This document shows, one piece after another, positions 3 through 8,987 of a stretch of 18,689 bases of DNA. The notes beneath the pieces are model-generated. The model saw nothing but the letters and a program-made list of their open reading frames with translations, had not been told where the DNA came from and searched no databases. Source of the stretch: Abditibacteriaceae bacterium (GTDB taxonomy: Bacteria; Armatimonadota; Abditibacteriia; Abditibacteriales; Abditibacteriaceae); NCBI GenBank assembly GCA_031372065.1, contig JANMKN010000094.1, forward strand, positions 1 through 18,689, given 5' to 3'. A program made the translations under genes and the position numbers. Every line of letters starts with the position of its first letter. The stretch's first letter is position 1.

Positions 3-137
3 GCCTTTGATCCGGTCGCCTTCATGAAGCGGCACATGGACCGGATCACCTATGTGCATTTCAAGGACATTGATCCGAAGGTGCGCGCGGAGGCGATCGC
101 CAACAGCACGGATTTCAATAGGTGGCAACTTGGGTAA
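3..137 (+). pseudogene. Fragment of a sugar-phosphate isomerase/epimerase TIM-barrel gene (IolE/MocC inosose dehydratase-like), 5'-truncated by the window edge and breaking off near nt 117
   Basis: Frame +3 reads AFDPVAFMKRHMDRITYVHFKDIDPKVRAEAIANSTDF, which has the 'I-x-Y-V-H-F-K-D' strand typical of AP_endonuc_2/IolE-like proteins. It then runs into NRWQLG* instead of the expected F-x-x-L-G-x-G-x-V-D-F continuation. Confidence 0.6.
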
Positions 138-194
138 ATAGCATTCTGGTTAACGTGTTCCAAGCCCTGCCTTAGCCTTGCGGCGCCCTGCCGC

Positions 195-417
195 GTTATC
201 GCTTTCCCTATCCGCCCTATCGCTTTGGCTTCCCGTCGTATCGCTTTCGTTTGCCGTCGTATCGCTTTGGCTTCCCGCCGTATCGCGTTAGCTTGCCGTT
301 GTATCGCTTCGGGCATAATTCGTATCGCTGCGACTCGCCGCTGCATTGCCGTGAGCATAATCCGTATCGCTTTGGCGATAATTCGTATCGCTTTGGGCAT
401 AATTGGTATCGCTTTAA
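195..417. repeat. Degenerate tandem array of 11 units with a 21-bp period, core TATCGC(T)
   Basis: TATCGC starts at 197, 218, 239, 260, 281, 302, 323, 365, 386 and 407. The 344 unit is degenerate (CATTGC). Spacing is exactly 21 nt throughout. Confidence 0.9.
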
Positions 418-510
418 CGATAGATTGAAATGATTTCGAATTCCACTGGCGAAAAACGGCTGTTCGCGGAGAAGCGCGGCGCTACACTGCACAAAAGTTT
501 GCGTTTTCTC

Positions 511-942
511 ATGCGACAGGGCTATTTTTCGCGTTTGGCACAGCGACATCCCTTTGGGCGATGGTTTCCGTTGCTGCTTGTCGCGTTACAAGTCGTCGCA
601 CCGTTGTGGCACGTTTGCGAAATGAGCGGCAACTGCGCGGATTGCCACGGCAAAAAGGGCGCATTGGTTTGCCGTGGCACGAAGAAATCTGCCGCGCCGC
701 GCTGTAAACACTGTAAGGTTGTCGCTTTTATCGGCGCCGATAGTCGTTCGGAGCGTTTTAAAGGCACCTGTTTAGCGCGCGAACTCATGAGTATGGCGCG
801 CGTGACTGTCGCGCCCTTAGCTCTTAAATTTCAAATTACACGCGTGCGCGTTCACCGTCCAAAACACGCGCCGCAACGTGAATTTTTCGCTTCCAGCCTT
901 CCTCCTTCACGCGGCCCGCCTGCGCCTTTCGTTGTTTTGTAA
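511..942 (+). CDS. DUF2946/CruR/CutF-like metal-sensing leader protein with a C-terminal RGPP ribosome-arrest motif
   Basis: N-terminal basic plus hydrophobic segment (RWFPLLLVALQVVAPLW), then a Cys/His-rich region (HVC, CADCH at 634-648, CKHC at 703-714, CLAR at 769-780), then a Pro-rich tail LPPSRGPPAP with RGPP at 910-921. It lies directly upstream of an HMA gene. ATG 511 is preferred over ATG 430, but the start is uncertain. Confidence 0.8.
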   Translation: MRQGYFSRLAQRHPFGRWFPLLLVALQVVAPLWHVCEMSGNCADCHGKKGALVCRGTKKSAAPRCKHCKVVAFIGADSRSERFKGTCLARELMSMARVTVAPLALKFQITRVRVHRPKHAPQREFFASSLPPSRGPPAPFVVL

Positions 943-960
943 TTGTCATCAACGAAAGGA
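925..960 (+). promoter_or_regulatory. Shine-Dalgarno-sequestering hairpin (translational attenuator)
   Basis: CCTTTCGTTG (925-934) is the perfect reverse complement of CAACGAAAGG (950-959). The 3' arm overlaps the SD AAAGGA (955-960), which lies 6 nt before ATG 967. Confidence 0.8.
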
Positions 961-966
961 ATTTTC

Positions 967-1476
967 ATGTTTGAATTTAGTAAACCGCGCCACGTTTTTT
1001 CCGGCGTTTGGTTTTTCGTCTCATTGTTTTTATGCGTTTTGCCTGTTTTCGCCGACAATACAGCGACAAAAACGCCCGTTCGCGCCTTGAGTTTTCAAAT
1101 CGCCGTTGAGTGCAATTGCGCTTCGTGCGTGTTTGATGTGCAACGCGACTTGAAAAAATTCGCGGGCGTGCAAAGCGCCAAATTCAACGGCAAAACGCAT
1201 CGCATCGAAATCGGATTTAATGAAGGCACGCACACAGTTTCGGAATTGACGCACGCCGTGGTGAAATCGGAGTTGGGCAAAGGCGCGGCGCTGTGTTGGA
1301 GCGTGCCAGCGGGCAGCAAAGCCGAAACTTTGGTCAAGGCACTCTTGAATGTGCCCGGCGTGCAAAGCGCGCGTTTGGATAAATCTGGCCTGATTTTGCT
1401 GACTTTCAAAAACGCGCCCGCCGTGAAATTGCAACAATTGGACGAGGCTACCAAAGGAGCCAGCGATGAAAAGTAA
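967..1476 (+). CDS. Exported heavy-metal-associated (HMA, CopZ/MerP-like) protein with two HMA-like domains
   Basis: Signal peptide ending LPVFA-D. The first domain has ECNCASC followed by LKKFAGVQSAKFN. The second domain (LLNVPGVQSARLD) lacks the Cys pair. The SD supports ATG 967 rather than TTG 943. Confidence 0.8.
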   Translation: MFEFSKPRHVFSGVWFFVSLFLCVLPVFADNTATKTPVRALSFQIAVECNCASCVFDVQRDLKKFAGVQSAKFNGKTHRIEIGFNEGTHTVSELTHAVVKSELGKGAALCWSVPAGSKAETLVKALLNVPGVQSARLDKSGLILLTFKNAPAVKLQQLDEATKGASDEK

Positions 1477-2182
1477 GTTTGGTGGCAGTTTTGCCGGAGC
1501 CGCATTGCTTGTTTTTTCAGCTTGCAATCCGGCAGCGGCGCATCACGGACGCGATTTTTTGCTGCTCGAAACCGACGATATGCCCGCCAAAGGCGACAGT
1601 TATTTGGTGGCGACAGTGGACACCATTCGCACCAAAGATGAGCGCGCTACAGAAATCACGCCGGGCCTCGTTTTGCGCGCCGGAAACCGCGTTGCCATTG
1701 AACCTCATTTTCATATCGCGCGTGAGGCGGGCGAAAGTTTTCGCTATGCCGCTTCGGCGCTGGGCGTGCGCTTGCGGCTCGGCGACATCGGACACACTGG
1801 CTGGCGTGCTGCTTTGAGCGGCGAAGTGGAAGTCACGCGCAACCGCGCCGCCGAACCGACGGGCGGCACGTTTCGCTTTATCGCGGCCACCACGCGACCC
1901 TGCGCGTTAGTGACAGCTAATGTTATTGTCGGCCATGAATTTACAGCGGGCGGCGCGTCGAATTATGCACTGGGACTCGGTGCGCTGGCGCCGCTTTCTA
2001 ATGGCGATCAAGTGGGCATTGAAAGCATCGTATCGCTGCCGTTGCGCGAAGGTATCGAAATTTTGCCGTCCTATTCGCATCGTTTCGGCAAACGCACACA
2101 GGGCAAAATCGGCGTCGGCGTTTTTCACGCGCGCGGTTTCACATCGGGCACTTTGCACGCGCAGTTGGTGCAGCGATTTTGA
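1466..2182 (+). CDS. Putative outer-membrane beta-barrel protein with an N-terminal His-His motif
   Basis: Signal peptide ending PAAA, then HHGRDFLLLE. Alternating amphipathic strands (LGVRLRLG, KIGVGVF) and a C-terminal Phe (LHAQLVQRF, BAM-signal-like). Overlaps the upstream gene by 11 nt and has SD AAGGAG. Confidence 0.65.
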   Translation: MKSKFGGSFAGAALLVFSACNPAAAHHGRDFLLLETDDMPAKGDSYLVATVDTIRTKDERATEITPGLVLRAGNRVAIEPHFHIAREAGESFRYAASALGVRLRLGDIGHTGWRAALSGEVEVTRNRAAEPTGGTFRFIAATTRPCALVTANVIVGHEFTAGGASNYALGLGALAPLSNGDQVGIESIVSLPLREGIEILPSYSHRFGKRTQGKIGVGVFHARGFTSGTLHAQLVQRF

Positions 2183-2240
2183 ATTTTGCCTTTACGCGTG
2201 GCGTGCAAGCGTCATACTTTCTGTGATGAAGGAGTTGCAC

Positions 2241-2981
2241 ATGAGATGTAAAATTTGGCGATGGGCCACCCTTGCGACGTTGCCTCTCGTTTTGCCGTTG
2301 GCGCTATCCGGTTGCACCTCCGGCGGCGCCAATGTGGAAGTGAAAAACGAAACTGCCGTTGTCGGGCATCAATCGGGCGAGGCGCTTTTGGGGCCGGACG
2401 GCAAGCCGCGCTACAAACTCAATCCCAATTTGCCGCACGCTTATTCCAAAAAAGAAGCTGTGGTGCGTCGCATCAAAATCAATGAACCCGCGCCGGATTT
2501 CAAAATGCCAACATTGGATGGCCAAACGCTCAAACTCAGCGATTTTCGGGGCAAAGCCGCGCTTTTCATGTTCGCCGATACAACTTGCCCGTGCGTCAAG
2601 GCTTACGCTGACCGCATGAAAGCCTTGGATGCGAAGTTTGGCGAGTTCGGCTTGAAAACCATTTACATTTTTTCCAACGGCAAAACTGACACGAAAGACG
2701 AAATCGCGCAGTTTGTCAAAGCGCAAGATTACAAATGGCCGATTGTCTTGGATTTAAATCAAACGCTGCTCAAGCAGTTTGATGCCGCCTGTTCGACTGA
2801 AGTGTTTTTGTTTGACCCGAAAGGGCGTTTGCGCTATCACGGACGCATTGACGACGATACGTTTGAACCCGGCGCGGTGCGCGAACGCGATTTGCAAGCC
2901 GCCGTTGTCGCCGTTCTTGATGGCCGCGCTGTGCCCGACGCCGAAACCCAAGCCTTTGGCTGCGCGTTTCCAAAACTTTGA
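2241..2981 (+). CDS. AhpC/TSA-redoxin family (PRX_like1-type) thioredoxin-fold lipoprotein
   Basis: SD GAAGGAG at 2228-2234 and lipobox LSGC. Motifs APDFKMPTLDGQTLKLSDFRGK, TCPCV, LRYHGRIDD and C-terminal AFGCAF. The ORF-track start at 1920 overlaps the previous gene and is rejected. Confidence 0.85.
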   Translation: MRCKIWRWATLATLPLVLPLALSGCTSGGANVEVKNETAVVGHQSGEALLGPDGKPRYKLNPNLPHAYSKKEAVVRRIKINEPAPDFKMPTLDGQTLKLSDFRGKAALFMFADTTCPCVKAYADRMKALDAKFGEFGLKTIYIFSNGKTDTKDEIAQFVKAQDYKWPIVLDLNQTLLKQFDAACSTEVFLFDPKGRLRYHGRIDDDTFEPGAVRERDLQAAVVAVLDGRAVPDAETQAFGCAFPKL

Positions 2982-2987
2982 AATAGA

Positions 2988-3078
2988 AACACAAAGAACA
3001 CAGAGGTTTCTACAAAGAACACCAAGAAAAATACAAGCTCTTTGTGAAACTTTGTGCGATCTTTGTGTTCTTTGTGTT
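2988..3078. repeat. REP-like intergenic imperfect palindrome (ACACAAAGA-type units)
   Basis: AACACAAAGAACACAGAG (2988-3005) pairs with CTTTGTGTTCTTTGTGTT (3061-3078), 17/18. An inner ACAAAG/CTTTGT pair is also present. Confidence 0.75.
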
Positions 3079-3091
3079 GCGAGGAAAGACA

Positions 3092-3499
3092 ATGAAAAAA
3101 CTCATGCTCACCGTCGCATTATGCGGCTTGATGTTGCCCGTCGCGGCCCACAAAGACAAAGCGGGCAAACAATGCAAAACGGAAAAAACCGCCCTGAAAA
3201 GCTGCTGTTCGATGCTTTCGCGCAGCGCGATGCTGAAAAATTCCAGCAAAACTGTCGCTTCAGCAAGCGCCAAAAAGACTGACAAAACTGCCATTTATGC
3301 TGTCAGCGGCATGACCTGCGACGGTTGCGCCAGCGGTTTGCAAGCGGGACTTGCCAAAGAAAAAGGTGTTGGCAGCGTAAAAGTGGACTTGAAAACCAAA
3401 AAAGCCACGCTGCTTTTCGACCCGAAGCAAACCGACGCCAAAAAACTCGAAGCCGCTTTTGCGCGCAAAGGTTTTCCGGCGAAGCTTGTAAAAAGTTAA
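3092..3499 (+). CDS. Exported HMA-domain metal-binding protein (MerP/CopZ-like)
   Basis: SD GAGG at 3081-3084. Signal peptide MKKLMLTVALCGLMLPVAA, a Lys-rich linker with a CC pair, and the canonical VSGMTCDGC...GVGSVKVDL...GF HMA domain. Confidence 0.9.
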   Translation: MKKLMLTVALCGLMLPVAAHKDKAGKQCKTEKTALKSCCSMLSRSAMLKNSSKTVASASAKKTDKTAIYAVSGMTCDGCASGLQAGLAKEKGVGSVKVDLKTKKATLLFDPKQTDAKKLEAAFARKGFPAKLVKS

Positions 3500-3500
3500 A

Positions 3501-3611
3501 ATTCACCGCTGAGGATGCAGAGCGCGCAGAGCAGAGAAAAGAAGAGGGAGATTTGAAATTCTCCAAAATCGTTGTTTCCTCTTCGCGTTTTCTGCATCCT
3601 TTGCGGTGAAT
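3501..3611. repeat. REP-like intergenic imperfect palindrome (CACCGC-GAG-GCAGAG type)
   Basis: ATTCACCGCTGAGGATGCAGA (3501-3521) versus TCTGCATCCTTTGCGGTGAAT (3591-3611) is 19/21 complementary, with internal GCAGAG reiterations. Confidence 0.75.
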
Positions 3612-3618
3612 GAAAAAC

Positions 3619-3647
3619 AGCCCCGGCGATTTTGCGTCGGGGCTTTT
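3619..3647 (+). terminator. Probable intrinsic terminator of the metal operon
   Basis: Stem AGCCCCGGCG / CGTCGGGGCT (one G-U pair), 6-nt loop and a short T tail, preceded by an A run. Confidence 0.55.
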
Positions 3648-3666
3648 CGTGCGTTACCGAAGCCTT

Positions 3667-6600
3667 ATGCAATTACTCGATCTCGTTGCCTCGCAATTCG
3701 ATTTTCAAAAAGCCGCAGAAGATTCGGCGCTGAGTTTCTATGGCGCGCCGTCGCCTTCGTGGGCCACGCTGGCGGCGGCGCTGCAAAATGCGCGCGGCGG
3801 GCACGTTTTGCTCCTTGTGCCCAACAGCGAAGCGGCGGAAAATGCCGCCAGCGATTTGCAGGCGCTCTTTGCGCTTTCCGAAACCGCGCCGCCCGAAGTG
3901 GCGCTTTTCCCCATTCCTGACCGCGCCGGTTTTGAAGACGGCACCGGCGACCGGGGCGCTGTTCAAGACCGCCTTGCGGTTCTCGATATTTTGCACGGCA
4001 CCGCGCCCGCCCTTGTCGTGGCGCCGGTCAATGCCCTTGCGCATCCGACTTTGCCCGCCAACGAATTGCGGCACGGTTACGACACCATAAACAAAGGCCA
4101 GACGCTTGACCGCGATGAATTTATCGAGCATCTTTCGGGAACGGGCTACGAGCGAATGCCGCAAGTCGAAGCGCCCGGCCATTTTGCCGCGCGCGGCGGT
4201 CTGATTGATTTTTTCCCGCCTGCCGCGCGCGAAGCGATTCGCATCGAGCTTTTTGGCGACGAAGTAGATTCGATTCGCTGCTTTGACGTGGATTCGCAGC
4301 GCAGCACCACGAAGTTAGATAGTGTAAGACTTACACCTCCACGCGAAATTTACTTGGCGCCCGAAAAAGGCCGCAAAATCGCCGTGCAATTGCAGGATTT
4401 ATTGGATGAACAAGCCGCGCAATTGCGCCGCGCCGCCAGATTAGACGAAGCCAATCATTTAGTGGAAGCCGTCGGGCGCGATATTCAACGCTTGAGGCAA
4501 GGCGTTTACTTCGACGGCCTTGACCGCTACCGCGCCTTGCTTTACCCGCAGCGCCCGACTTTGCTCGATCATTTGCCGCCCAGTAGCCTTGTGATTTGGG
4601 CCGATCCGACGCGCTGCCAAAGCCAAAACACGCGCCTGATAGACGAAGACCAAAGCACACGCGATGCCGCCGTTGAAGCGGGCGATGCCCTGCGTTTGCC
4701 CGAAGGCCCGTTGTGCGATTTCGCCAGTTTGAAGAAACGCGCCGATGATTTTTCGAGTGTGCAATTTCATGTTCAGCAAGATGAAAATTCCGCACTTCAC
4801 ACTCCGCATTCCGCACTCGATATTCATCTGCCTCCCGTTTTCGGCGGCAAGTTGGAGCAGGTTCTCGAATGGGTGCGCACATGGCAGCGGCGGGGCGGTA
4901 TTGTGGTTTTGTCCAGCGCCCATGCGCGGCGCGTGCGCGAAATTTTGGCCGATGGCGATGTGCGCCATGTGCATTTGCTTGATGCCGTCACCGAACCACA
5001 AGCGGGCCTCGTTTTGGTGATGGGTCAGCGTTTGAGTAGTGGCTTCACTTTCGGCGACGTGAATAGTGGTCAGTGGTCAGTGGTCAGTGGTCAGAGATTA
5101 GCCGTTCTCACCGATTCTGAAATGTTCGGTTGGCGCACGGAGCCGGTGCGATTGGCGGCCAAGCGCAAGTCGAAAAAGAAGCGTGAAGTGACAGCAAAAA
5201 AAGGCAGCGCTGCCGCTTTAACCGATTTGGCCGATTTGCGTGAAGGCGATTTCGTGGTGCATATCAATCACGGCATTGCGCGCTATGGCGGCGTGGCGCG
5301 GCGTGAAGTGGCGGGTGCGGTCAACGATTATTTGATGCTGGAATACGAAGGCACTGACCGTCTCTATGTGCCGGTTTCGCAGCTTGACCGCGTGCAAAAA
5401 TATCTTGGTTCCGGCGATGGCACGCCGCCTCTCAACTCGCTCAAAGGTAACGCGTGGGAGCGCACCAAAAAACGTGTGCGCGAAGAAACCGCGCAAATCG
5501 CCAAGCAATTGGCCGAACTTTACGCTTCGCGCGAACAAGCCGAAAAACTGCCTTATCCGCCCGATTCGCCGTGGCAGCGCGAAATGGAATCGGCCTTTCC
5601 CTACGAAGAAACGCCCTCGCAATTGCAAGCCATCAAGGATGCCAAAAGCGATCTCGAAAATTCCAAGCCAATGGATAGGTTAGTGTGCGGCGATGTCGGC
5701 TATGGCAAAACCGAAGTGGCAGTGCGCGCCGCCTTTAAAGTGGCGCAGGAAGGCCGCCAAGTCGCCGTTTTGGTGCCGACAACCGTTTTGGCGCAGCAGC
5801 ATTATCAAACCTTTTCTGAGCGCCTCGCGCCTTATCCGACAAGGGTTGAAGTGATGTCGCGCTTTCGCACACCGGGCGAACTTCGCAAAATCGCCGACGA
5901 TGTCAGGCTGGGTGCTGTGGACATTCTTATCGGCACGCATCGCCTTTTATCGGGCGATGTGCAGTTCCGCGATTTGGGCCTTGTCGTGGTGGATGAAGAA
6001 CAGCGTTTTGGCGTGTTGCAAAAAGAAAAACTCAAAGAAATGCGCGCCGAAGTGGATATTCTCACGCTGTCGGCCACCCCGATTCCGCGCACTTTGCATT
6101 TCGCGCTCGGCGGCCTGCGCGAACTGTCTTTAATCACCGACCCGCCGCCCGGACGCCTTGCCGTAAAAACTTTTATTGCGCCTTACAAAGATGACGTAGT
6201 GCGCCAAGCGATTGAACGCGAAATCGAGCGCGAAGGGCAAATTTACTACGTTCACAACCGCATTCAAAGCATTCATCATGTCGCCGAACATTTGCGCCAA
6301 TTGGTGCCGCACGCGCGCATTGGTGTCGGGCACGGACAAATGGGTGATGAAGCGCTCGAACAAGTGATGCTCGACTTTATGCATCGCCGCACGGATGTTT
6401 TATTGTCCACAACGATTATCGAAAACGGCCTTGACTTACCGAATGTCAACACCATAATTGTTGACCGCTCGGAACTGTTGGGATTGTCGCAAATGTATCA
6501 ATTGCGTGGGCGCGTCGGGCGCAGTCCTCGTCAGGGTTACGCTTATTTTTTCAGTGGCGCACGCGGCAAACTATCGGTTGCCAGTGAAGAACGCTTCGCG

Positions 6601-7299: not shown

Positions 7300-7593
7300 T
7301 TAATGAATGACCCACTGCGCATCGGAGACTAAGCACACGCCGCCGATAGCGCGCAAAATGGGGCGAATGGCCTCAATGAGTTCGGGCACTTGTTCGGGCG
7401 CACAAGTCGTCAGCAGGTAGCTGTTCTTAAAGGCGTCCGAAAGTTCGTCGCCCGATTGGATGCCGCGTTCGCCACGTCCCGTCACGTTTTGCACGACGGT
7501 GTAGCCTTGCACGCCGTGTTCTTCCAAAACCCTGCACACTTCACGCAATTCCAGCGCGTTGGTGATGATTTCCAGCCGTTTAACGTTCTGCAT
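7300..7593 (-). CDS. sbtB: PII-like regulator SbtB
   Basis: 97 aa, MQNVKRLEII...GVQGYTVVQNVTGRGERG...GGVCLVSDA. It has SD GGAG and starts 2 nt after the sbtA stop. The ORF-track extension to 7941 overlaps sbtA and is rejected. Confidence 0.88.
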   Translation of the reverse strand: MQNVKRLEIITNALELREVCRVLEEHGVQGYTVVQNVTGRGERGIQSGDELSDAFKNSYLLTTCAPEQVPELIEAIRPILRAIGGVCLVSDAQWVIH

Positions 7594-7595
7594 TG

Positions 7596-8570
7596 TTATC
7601 TCCACAAACCATTGATAATCGCCATGTAAAGCGGAATTCCGATGATGACATTGAACGGAAACGTCATGGCCAAAGCCATTGTGACATATAAACCGGGATT
7701 GGCGTCGGGAATAGCCAATCGCACCGCCGCCGGCACTGCGATATACGAAGCGCTGGCGCACAACACGCAAAACAAAAGCGCATCGCCGCGCCCCAATTGC
7801 AGCGCAGAGGCCAAAACCAGCGCCAGAGCTGCGTTTAGCAGCGGCACGACCACCGCGAAGCTGATGGGAAAAGCGCCCAGCGCCCGCGAACCGCGCAGGC
7901 GCCGCGCGCTGACAAGGCCCATATCCAGCAAAAACAAGCACAACACACCTTTGAAAATATCGCCGGTAAACGGCTTGAGCGCGTGTTCACCGTTTTCGCC
8001 GGTCAAAATGCCAATCAGCAGGCTGCCAACTAACAAAAACACCGAACCGTTGGCAAAAGCATCGCGTAGTAAATCGCCGCGTGGCAAAAATTTTTCGCTG
8101 CTAATTTCGCGTTTCGCTATGCGCGCCAGCAAAACGCCCACGATAATTGCGGGCGATTCCATCAGTGCCATCGCCGCCACCATGTGCCCGCCGAATTCCA
8201 TTTTTTGCTGACCCAAAAACGAAGTTGCCGTGATAAAAGTCACCGCACTGACCGAGCCGTAAGTCGCCGCCACTGCCGCCGCGTCTGGCACACTCATTTT
8301 GCGGCGCAGCACGAAAAATGTGTAAAGCGGCACCGCCAAGGCCATGAAAATCGCCGCGACCAGCGTCCACACCACCTGACTGCTCACGCCGCTTTTGTTC
8401 AATTCTACGCCGCCCTTAAAACCCAGCGACATCAAAAGATACAACGAAAAAAACTTCGGCAATGGCTGGGGCACATCCAAATCGGATTTTATCCACACCG
8501 CTGCCATGCCCAAAAAGAAAAACAGAACGGGCGGGTTCAGCAAATTTGCCAGCAAAGGCGACATATCCAT
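7596..8570 (-). CDS. sbtA: SbtA-family sodium-dependent bicarbonate transporter
   Basis: Motifs NLLNPPVLFFFLG, KSDL, YLLMSLGFKGG, AATYGSVSAVTF, MALMESPAIIVG, LFLLDMG, ASASYIAVPAA and TFPFNVIIGIPLY. About 10 TM segments, adjacent to a PII-like gene. Confidence 0.93.
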   Translation of the reverse strand: MDMSPLLANLLNPPVLFFFLGMAAVWIKSDLDVPQPLPKFFSLYLLMSLGFKGGVELNKSGVSSQVVWTLVAAIFMALAVPLYTFFVLRRKMSVPDAAAVAATYGSVSAVTFITATSFLGQQKMEFGGHMVAAMALMESPAIIVGVLLARIAKREISSEKFLPRGDLLRDAFANGSVFLLVGSLLIGILTGENGEHALKPFTGDIFKGVLCLFLLDMGLVSARRLRGSRALGAFPISFAVVVPLLNAALALVLASALQLGRGDALLFCVLCASASYIAVPAAVRLAIPDANPGLYVTMALAMTFPFNVIIGIPLYMAIINGLWR

Positions 8571-8611
8571 CGGCAGGCACTCTCCACTATGTTAAAATTC
8601 GTCCTGAGGCA

Positions 8612-8640
8612 ATCATATCGTGAATTTAATTTCACGTCAA
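8612..8640 (-). promoter_or_regulatory. Sigma70-type promoter of sbtAB
   Basis: The minus strand reads TTGACG (8640-8635), a 17-nt spacer, then TATGAT (8617-8612), about 40 nt upstream of the sbtA start. Confidence 0.8.
8619..8636. promoter_or_regulatory. Palindromic operator candidate CGTGAA-N6-TTCACG
   Basis: Perfect 6-bp inverted repeat that fills the sbtA promoter spacer and overlaps the -35 box, between sbtA and a divergent regulator gene. Confidence 0.7.
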
Positions 8641-8678
8641 ATGATTCGCGAAAAGAATGTCGTATTTCGGAGAAAAAC

Positions 8679-8987
8679 ATGGTCGAAGAGCAAATTTTGC
8701 CTGCCGCTGAGGGCGGTTGGACGTTTTTAACGAACTACGCGCATATTTTGATTTGCCTTGCCAAGCAGCCGGATTTGACGCTGCGCGAAGTGGCCGAGCG
8801 CGTGGGCATAACCGAGCGCGCGGTGCAGCGCGTGGTCGGCGATTTGGAAAAAGCGGGCATTTTGGTGCGCAGCCGCGATGGGCGTCGCAATCGCTACGAA
8901 ATCGTGCGCACAGCGCAACTGCGTCATCCCTTGGAAGCGCATCGCAGCGTGGGCGACTTGCTGGATTTGGTTTTGGGAAATGGCTAA
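8679..8987 (+). CDS. Small winged-helix transcriptional regulator (ArsR/MarR-like, WTFLTN-x-AH family)
   Basis: SD GGAG before ATG 8679. 102 aa with WTFLTNYAHILICL, HTH LTLREVAERVGITERAVQRVVGDL, wing RDGRRNRY and LRHPLE. Confidence 0.88.
   Translation: MVEEQILPAAEGGWTFLTNYAHILICLAKQPDLTLREVAERVGITERAVQRVVGDLEKAGILVRSRDGRRNRYEIVRTAQLRHPLEAHRSVGDLLDLVLGNG

Follow-up and report, generated by a model that had tools for sequence, protein, structure and literature searches.

Two metal-responsive arrest leaders have been characterized, CruR of Bordetella pertussis and CutF of Rhodobacter capsulatus, which, according to the cited literature, differ in output and have opposite signs of regulation. 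Translational arrest of CruR has been demonstrated (PMC12992588), and a fixed spacing is a hallmark of this leader (PMC9426467). In the contexts tested in the survey of RAPP/RGPP upstream ORFs (uORFs), RGPP gave the strongest arrest, and genes for metal handling, thioredoxin-domain, and DUF1559 proteins were enriched downstream (DUF1559, 112 versus 68, 6.5-fold); since E. coli ribosomes were arrested only poorly by 6 of 7 Streptomyces peptides, arrest depends on context (PMC12992588).

Here, we analyzed a window of 18,689 nucleotides, i.e., the whole stretch taken from contig JANMKN010000094.1 of an Abditibacteriaceae bacterium, in which an initial annotation had singled out an RGPP leader coupled to a hairpin over the Shine-Dalgarno sequence (SD) of the next gene as a candidate metal-responsive translational switch. 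Such a design is already known: CutF relies on this stem-loop logic (PMC9973294), and RAPP/RGPP leaders of metal genes have been surveyed in many bacteria (PMC12992588). We describe the locus as a member of this class.

Results

The leader ORF and its locus

The features of the locus are collected in Table 1. The leader (511-942, + strand; 143 aa; C-terminal end ...SLPPSRGPPAPFVVL*) starts at ATG 511 with no SD 5' of it, while the database gene call (P0003) begins at 430 and yields 170 aa. A sigma-70 scan at the leader found no full promoter; the hexamer at 483-488 is identical and in the same place in a congener, G002, and similar hexamers were seen by eye in several other loci. Residues 18-36 have a mean hydropathy of 1.74, preceded by a basic N-terminus, with a helix predicted at 18-33. 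This segment is likely a signal anchor or signal peptide, with export suggested by the basic N-terminus and hydrophobic stretch; its cleavage site is hard to place because Ala30-Pro31 is conserved. Six residues follow RGPP to the C-terminal end. The AlphaFold model of the leader is of low confidence (pLDDT 66, pTM 0.33), and the metal site is not resolvable from it. Inside the variable region of the leader lies a perfect 12-bp inverted repeat (643-654/668-679) with a 13-nt loop.

Table 1. Positions of the features of the leader, the hairpin, and the downstream genes in the window
Feature	Position	Strand	Basis or remark
Possible -10 promoter element (inferred)	483..488	+	About 22 nt 5' of the leader start
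Leader ORF, 143 aa, unnamed Abditibacteriaceae family	511..942	+	Start coincides with that in congener G002
Hydrophobic segment, residues 18-36, ending in conserved AP-x-WH-x-C	562..618	+	Hydropathy, conservation, predicted helix
His34-x-Cys36, putative half of sensing site	610..618	+	H 49/49, C 48/49
Cys87 of CLAxxL motif, 47 residues before Arg134	769..771	+	Invariant, 49/49
RGPP motif of the arrest type; stall predicted with 916-918 in the P site	910..921	+	R, P, P 49/49
5' arm (anti-SD)	925..934	+	925-929 pair with SD bases; compensatory changes in G002
3' arm (950-959) overlapping SD (955-960)	950..960	+	Complementarity, folding
First regulated gene (predicted), HMA-domain protein, hydrophobic N-terminus, CxCxxC	967..1476	+	PF00403, 31 bits (cut-off 24.8)
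Likely beta-barrel transporter of the outer membrane; overlaps the HMA gene	1466..2182	+	Atlas look-alikes (lead only)
AhpC/TSA-redoxin family protein	2241..2981	+	PF00578, 72 bits; PF08534, 58.5 bits
Second HMA-domain protein (MTCDGC)	3092..3499	+	PF00403, 52 bits

The leader-hairpin junction is real sequence and did not arise in assembly: run X1, which may be the source sample, has a contig spanning 116-3600, and run X3 has one spanning 914-1140, both with zero differences; all three sequencing runs compared come from one study. Further upstream, the X1 and X2 contigs over 1-116 continue into other sequence, and the X1 contig of 116-3600 differs before 116; positions 1-115 are likely a chimeric join. 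About 12 degenerate 21-nt repeats occupy 168-414 and read on the minus strand as a heptad-repeat ORF (50-400) that has no Pfam match, and arrays resembling this one are present on contigs C320 and C159. Elsewhere in the window, 7300-8987 holds genes for an SbtA-family bicarbonate transporter and a P-II-like protein, with a small winged-helix regulator encoded divergently.

Conservation of the leader family

The leader had zero Pfam or NCBIfam matches. Its recovered homologues comprise 8 relatives, 51 cluster representatives, and 28 further sequences; the family alignment contains 49 sequences, excluding P0003, the longer gene call of the locus itself, and seven partial or over-long matches. 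Profile search detected the family in 17 of 26 other Abditibacteriaceae genomes and, with 9 candidates scored per genome, in 0 of 374 genomes of the phylum sample outside this family, where a further search gave one weak, stop-interrupted match. A locus search with a 9-sequence alignment returned 5 genome loci, all apparently duplicates of known ones, and the relatives carrying the leader are labelled Abditibacteriaceae or Abditibacterium.

Positions A30, H34, C87, L88, L92, R134, P136, and P137 are invariant in the 49-sequence alignment. Conservation of the arrest motif was thereby confirmed: R-x-PP is found in 49/49 members, 2-9 residues from the C-terminal end, as RGPP in 34 and RAPP in 14 of the 48 scored, with the single RSPP member left out. 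Of the 7 Cys and 6 His in this Cys/His-rich leader, only H34 (49/49), C36 (48/49), C68 (40/49), and C87 (49/49) are conserved in the family. Two CxxC motifs (42-45 and 65-68) are poorly kept (C42 13/49, C45 12/49, C65 11/49), and heme-c binding at C42xxC45H was ruled out, the His being present in 6/49 homologues. The motif Arg codon is CGC in 19/19 genome loci, a count made apart from background codon use.

The distance from C87 to R134 is 47 residues in 41 and 48 residues in 7 of the 48 members scored with a pattern allowing 36-59 (the RSPP member was unscored), and in the 28 further homologues, scored with no distance limit, it is 47 in 22 and 48 in 6. This spacing of 47 or 48 thus holds in 76/76 scored sequences, compared to a range of 45 to 107 for the His-to-Cys distance. 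Because this C-terminal spacer is poorly conserved in sequence yet fixed in length, its length looks to be under selection, as reported for CruR (PMC9426467).

A hairpin over the start of the HMA gene

RGPP at 910-921, the perfect arms at 925-934 and 950-959, the SD at 955-960, and the HMA ATG at 967 all lie where the initial annotation had placed them. The arms are 100% complementary over 10 bp and enclose a 15-nt loop containing the leader stop (940-942), which is 24 nt before the ATG; the SD, AAAGGA, is 6 nt upstream of the ATG, and each of the 10 stem pairs has a predicted probability of at least 0.97. The fold of 900-1000 is modest when taken alone (z = -2.0; 8/200 shuffles equally good). 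Among the 1076 SD-bearing genes of the genome, 9 have a perfect stem of 10 bp that reaches into the 24 nt preceding the start, and 52 have a duplex of equal strength into the start region. Compared to G002, both bases differ in three adjacent pairs, six pairs are identical, and the innermost pair is not kept; this figure of 3/10 double-sided changes, with slid controls giving 0-1, was reached by 69/500 shuffles and, coming from two sequences, is not significant by itself. An Rfam search over 100-3700 gave two chance-level matches, both outside the feature, and a riboswitch family was rejected.

The hairpin across related loci

A MAFFT/RNAalifold consensus of 9 unanchored loci gave no common stem, as unequal loops misalign, so alignment-free pairing tests were adopted. 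Across the 19 genome loci, pairing between the 24 nt that follow the motif and the start region of the same locus averages -13.1 kcal/mol, versus -7.3 kcal/mol for cross pairings between loci and -6.0 to -7.6 kcal/mol for shifted-window controls. None of 20,000 permutations (0/20,000) gave an own-versus-cross difference as strong, although the loci are kin and this figure is overstated, as are all hairpin statistics here, which treat related genomes as independent. By the same duplex test, 14/19 genome loci beat 95% of shuffles, L019 and L028 are borderline, and L016, L018, and L025 fail; of these, L016 and L018 have the SD paired with the Pro codons themselves. Of four metagenome loci, one passes, one is borderline, and two fail (L054 duplicates L053). 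L018 and L040 (G006) have a frameshifted leader and a short stem, reflecting decay or sequencing error.

In partition-function calculations, the partner of the start region begins +1 to +13 from the first Pro codon in 21/23 loci, with no stable partner found in L025 and L056. The position of the arm start has a standard deviation of 2.9 nt when measured from the P-site codon, versus 8.3 nt (range, -40 to -2) when measured from the stop, and the ATG lies 45-277 nt away across the 23 loci. Five of the 19 genome loci are without SD-like pairing, and 4 of those 5 still have the stem. In L027 and L017, the leader stop is separated from the next start by 229 and 158 nt of largely self-folded sequence, and the motif-proximal arm still pairs with the start region. 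The arm sequences are wholly different between genera; judged by these pairing predictions, the hairpin is conserved as a structure, not as a sequence. Conservation of the hairpin in orthologous loci, which the initial annotation had proposed as a check, is thus supported by the compensatory pairs relative to G002 and the tie of the arm to the arrest site in 21/23 loci; together with the invariant motif and the fixed Cys-to-arrest spacing, this favours the initial reading of the locus as a candidate switch.

These data also bear on whether the stall might control transcription through Rho access, with the stem being secondary. The genome does encode rho (628.9 bits, over the cut-off), and CruR, the nearest characterized R-x-PP leader, is reported to work via Rho (PMC9426467). 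Nevertheless, we regard this explanation as highly improbable at the present locus, given that only 24 nt lie between the leader stop and the next start, that the stem targets the start region in nearly all loci (21/23), and that the stem is absent from the intrinsic-terminator listing.

Predicted opening of the start region by a stalled ribosome

The ribosome edge was placed at +11 to +15 from the P-site codon. In the folding model, placing the first Pro in the P site brings 925-929, the partners of the SD bases, under the ribosome. Opening the start region costs 12.8 kcal/mol in the free RNA and 8.7, 6.8, and 5.0 kcal/mol with the stalled ribosome edge at +11, +13, and +15, respectively, i.e., a ribosome stalled at the first Pro is predicted to cut this cost roughly by half. 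With the ribosome ten codons earlier, the cost is 13.5 kcal/mol, and it drops from 12.5 kcal/mol at the Arg codon to 6.8 kcal/mol at the first Pro codon; over the 19 loci, it falls from 10.4 to 6.4-4.4 kcal/mol with a stalled ribosome. The stall register was adopted from the CruR toeprint (PMC12992588).

For a ribosome that has moved past the motif or reached the stop, the model gives an even more open stem (4.1 kcal/mol). Because these later positions, including the stop, open it further, ordinary translational coupling stays a rival, in which the stem would be opened by every ribosome that reaches the end of the leader, itself a small metal-binding protein, and RGPP would be no more than a slow spot. 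The position of the stop, in the loop and 24 nt before the ATG, fits this explanation, as does the full opening of the stem by a terminating ribosome in the model. However, the position of the arm follows the arrest site more closely than it follows the stop, a contrast that owes much to L027; the motif-proximal arm still pairs with starts lying 158 and 229 nt past the stop; and the motif is restricted to RGPP or RAPP (one RSPP) and keeps a constant distance to one Cys. We consider coupling alone improbable.

The downstream operon and its cargo

The leader is followed by four same-strand genes (HMA, probable barrel, redoxin, and HMA) and then mfd; none of the four is a pump or importer. Matches of the HMA gene (967-1476) to MerP/CopZ are below the cut-off. 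The barrel gene (1466-2182) has no Pfam or NCBIfam match; its Atlas look-alikes at 0.97 belong to HAEPLYID, UCP029691, and MetA-type clusters, and its single-sequence structure model has a pLDDT of 31. The HMA gene had been named as the regulated partner, but it is not the usual one in the family: of the 19 genome loci, 10 have a redoxin as first cargo gene, 6 have a prepilin-like DUF1559 gene, 2 have HMA, and 1 has DUF7282. Among the selection of operon genes scanned, DUF4198, DJ-1/PfpI-YHS, CusF-like, HMA, and ResA/TlpA-like genes recur further downstream. In G002, DUF1559 and DUF4198 genes (L037:6107-7704) separate the leader from the same HMA-barrel-redoxin-HMA block, a difference due to loss here or gain there; the G002 DUF4198 gene has no tblastn match in this genome at E<=1e-10. 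The stem, SD, and first codons remain attached to the leader in G002, and therefore the cassette travels as a unit.

The cargo raises the question of what the switch would sense. The same arrest-hairpin switch might respond not to metal but to the envelope thiol-redox state or folding/export capacity, e.g., through a C36-C87 disulfide. Redoxin is the commonest first cargo (10/19), ResA/TlpA-like and DJ-1/PfpI genes recur in the operons, the conserved core comprises two to three Cys and one His, and a Cys-pair arrest peptide before a thioredoxin-domain gene appears in PMC12992588. Set against these points, the same operons repeatedly carry HMA, CusF-like, YHS, and DUF4198 genes, His34 is invariant, and the spacing parallels that of the copper sensor CruR; we think a redox or folding input unlikely.

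Other candidate arrest leaders in the genome

Genome-wide, 4/240 near-stop RAPP/RGPP frames pass the leader filter, versus 2/391 for control motifs, and all 4 head metal-handling genes. The three others are RAPP leaders (L063:9409-9912, minus strand; L064:1243-1776, plus strand; and L065:9032-9505, minus strand), whose clusters are CusB/CusA/OEP-like, CzcA-like, and cupredoxin/CsoR/CopA-type. A motif-proximal stem was found by partition function in 1/3 of them, and profile comparison with two of them gave probabilities of 11% and 0.8%, with no kinship detected. In another family of the phylum, the minus strand of L008 (G054) carries a different Cys-rich leader with both RGPP and RAPP near a heavy-metal ATPase-like gene.

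Discussion

We consider it likely that arrest of the leader at RGPP holds a start-hiding hairpin open and that metal, probably copper, at the His/Cys site sets translation of the operon. The motif, hairpin, SD, conservation, spacing, and cargo are read from the loci, and the stall, export, and sensing steps are modelled on work with CruR, CutF, and RAPP/RGPP peptides. The ribosome would stall at RGPP during export of the leader and thereby keep the SD free, and H34, C36, and C87 would bind metal, probably copper, altering the pull on the nascent chain. C87 is 49 residues away from the P site, about the length of the tunnel plus the translocon.

As to the sign of regulation, we lean slightly toward a default stall with metal release, rather than the metal-induced stalling of CutF, because no motif tested gave stronger arrest than RGPP, CruR works with a default stall, and the operon has no pump. 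With a default stall, the operon would be on when metal is scarce, and metal-driven folding would pull the chain free and let the stem close. The cargo resembling MerP/CopZ and CusF points toward metal-induced stalling, as do the efflux operons headed by the other leaders of the genome. A redoxin or DUF1559 gene is first in 16/19 loci, which names no metal. A broader reading is possible but doubtful, namely a portable, family-wide cassette of leader, RGPP, stem, and ATG with swappable cargo, in which a CruR-type default stall, released via a split H-x-C...C site, would be joined to a CutF-type output, sensing envelope metal or thiol-redox and gating starts even without an SD.

The initial annotation had compared the leader with those of the DUF2946 type, and here it proved to be a distant look-alike only, with no match to the PF11162 HMM (cut-off, 23.7 bits). 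Of the family members, 6/49 match over the whole profile at E<=0.05 (best, 21.8 bits) and 12/49 match at E<=10, with one genome member scoring 18.8 bits; an Atlas neighbour of the leader contains 23% DUF2946 members. The CxxC at the DUF2946 family position is absent (CLAR here; CLAC in 3/48), and profile comparison with the sole above-cut-off DUF2946 match in a relative gave a probability of 3%, i.e., no kinship. The C-terminal RAPP-type motif of DUF2946 is present, as RGPP 6 residues before the end, and so is a fixed spacing of Cys to motif (45 intervening residues, within 1-2, in DUF2946), which amounts to 43-44 residues here if counted from a CxxC, 1-2 shorter than in CruR. Altogether, the sub-threshold matches and the Atlas neighbour suggest a distant kinship of the two families.

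The leader family brings no new principle. Nonetheless, its natural variants make it a compact test case, combining strict Cys-to-arrest spacing with a site other than CxxC, a stem re-evolved in sequence and fixed in position, and four cargo families. The family could show what sets the sign and ligand of arrest-leader sensors, and it links orphan genes (DUF1559, DUF4198, barrel, and redoxin) to one regulon.

The class to which these leaders belong, RAPP/RGPP arrest-peptide uORFs such as ApdA, ApdP, and the Streptomyces SLIV peptides, resembles them in motif, size, position, and localization signal (PMC12992588). The family is not among the portion of the RAPP list of PMC12992588 that was searched, the RGPP list of that report and the CutF-like list of PMC9973294 may contain it, and the main text of PMC12992588 has no 'stem-loop', 'Armatimonad', or 'Abditibacter'.

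CruR (Bp2923, DUF2946/PF11162) shares with the present leader a length of about 145 aa, an N-terminal export-type segment, and a near-terminal R-x-PP (PMC9426467), as well as a fixed Cys-to-Arg spacing, the distance from the first Cys to Arg being 49 in CruR and 47 in the Abditibacteriaceae leader. The latter differs in having no CxxC at the site and in scoring below the PF11162 cut-off; moreover, CruR is described as acting through Rho over a 162-bp intergenic region, whereas the Abditibacteriaceae output looks like a start-hiding stem. In this respect, the locus is closer to cutFOG of R. capsulatus, with which it shares a small exported-type Cys leader, a C-terminal Pro-Pro, metal-handling cargo, and a short intergenic stem-loop over the SD of the next gene, the last being based here on prediction and conservation (PMC9973294; bioRxiv 10.1101/2025.02.05.636593). 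With 143 aa, PP 6 residues from the C-terminus, and a same-strand neighbour at 24 nt, the leader lies within the filters used for CutF-like proteins (<=150 aa, <=15 residues, and <=1000 nt, respectively; PMC9973294). It differs from CutF in having RGPP rather than a proline run and H-x-C plus a distant Cys rather than CxxxC, the CutF copper motif being absent from its sequence, and in its cargo, which is HMA, redoxin, or DUF1559 rather than a multicopper oxidase. The class and its link to DUF1559 are already published, and the Abditibacteriaceae leaders are a new family within this known class.
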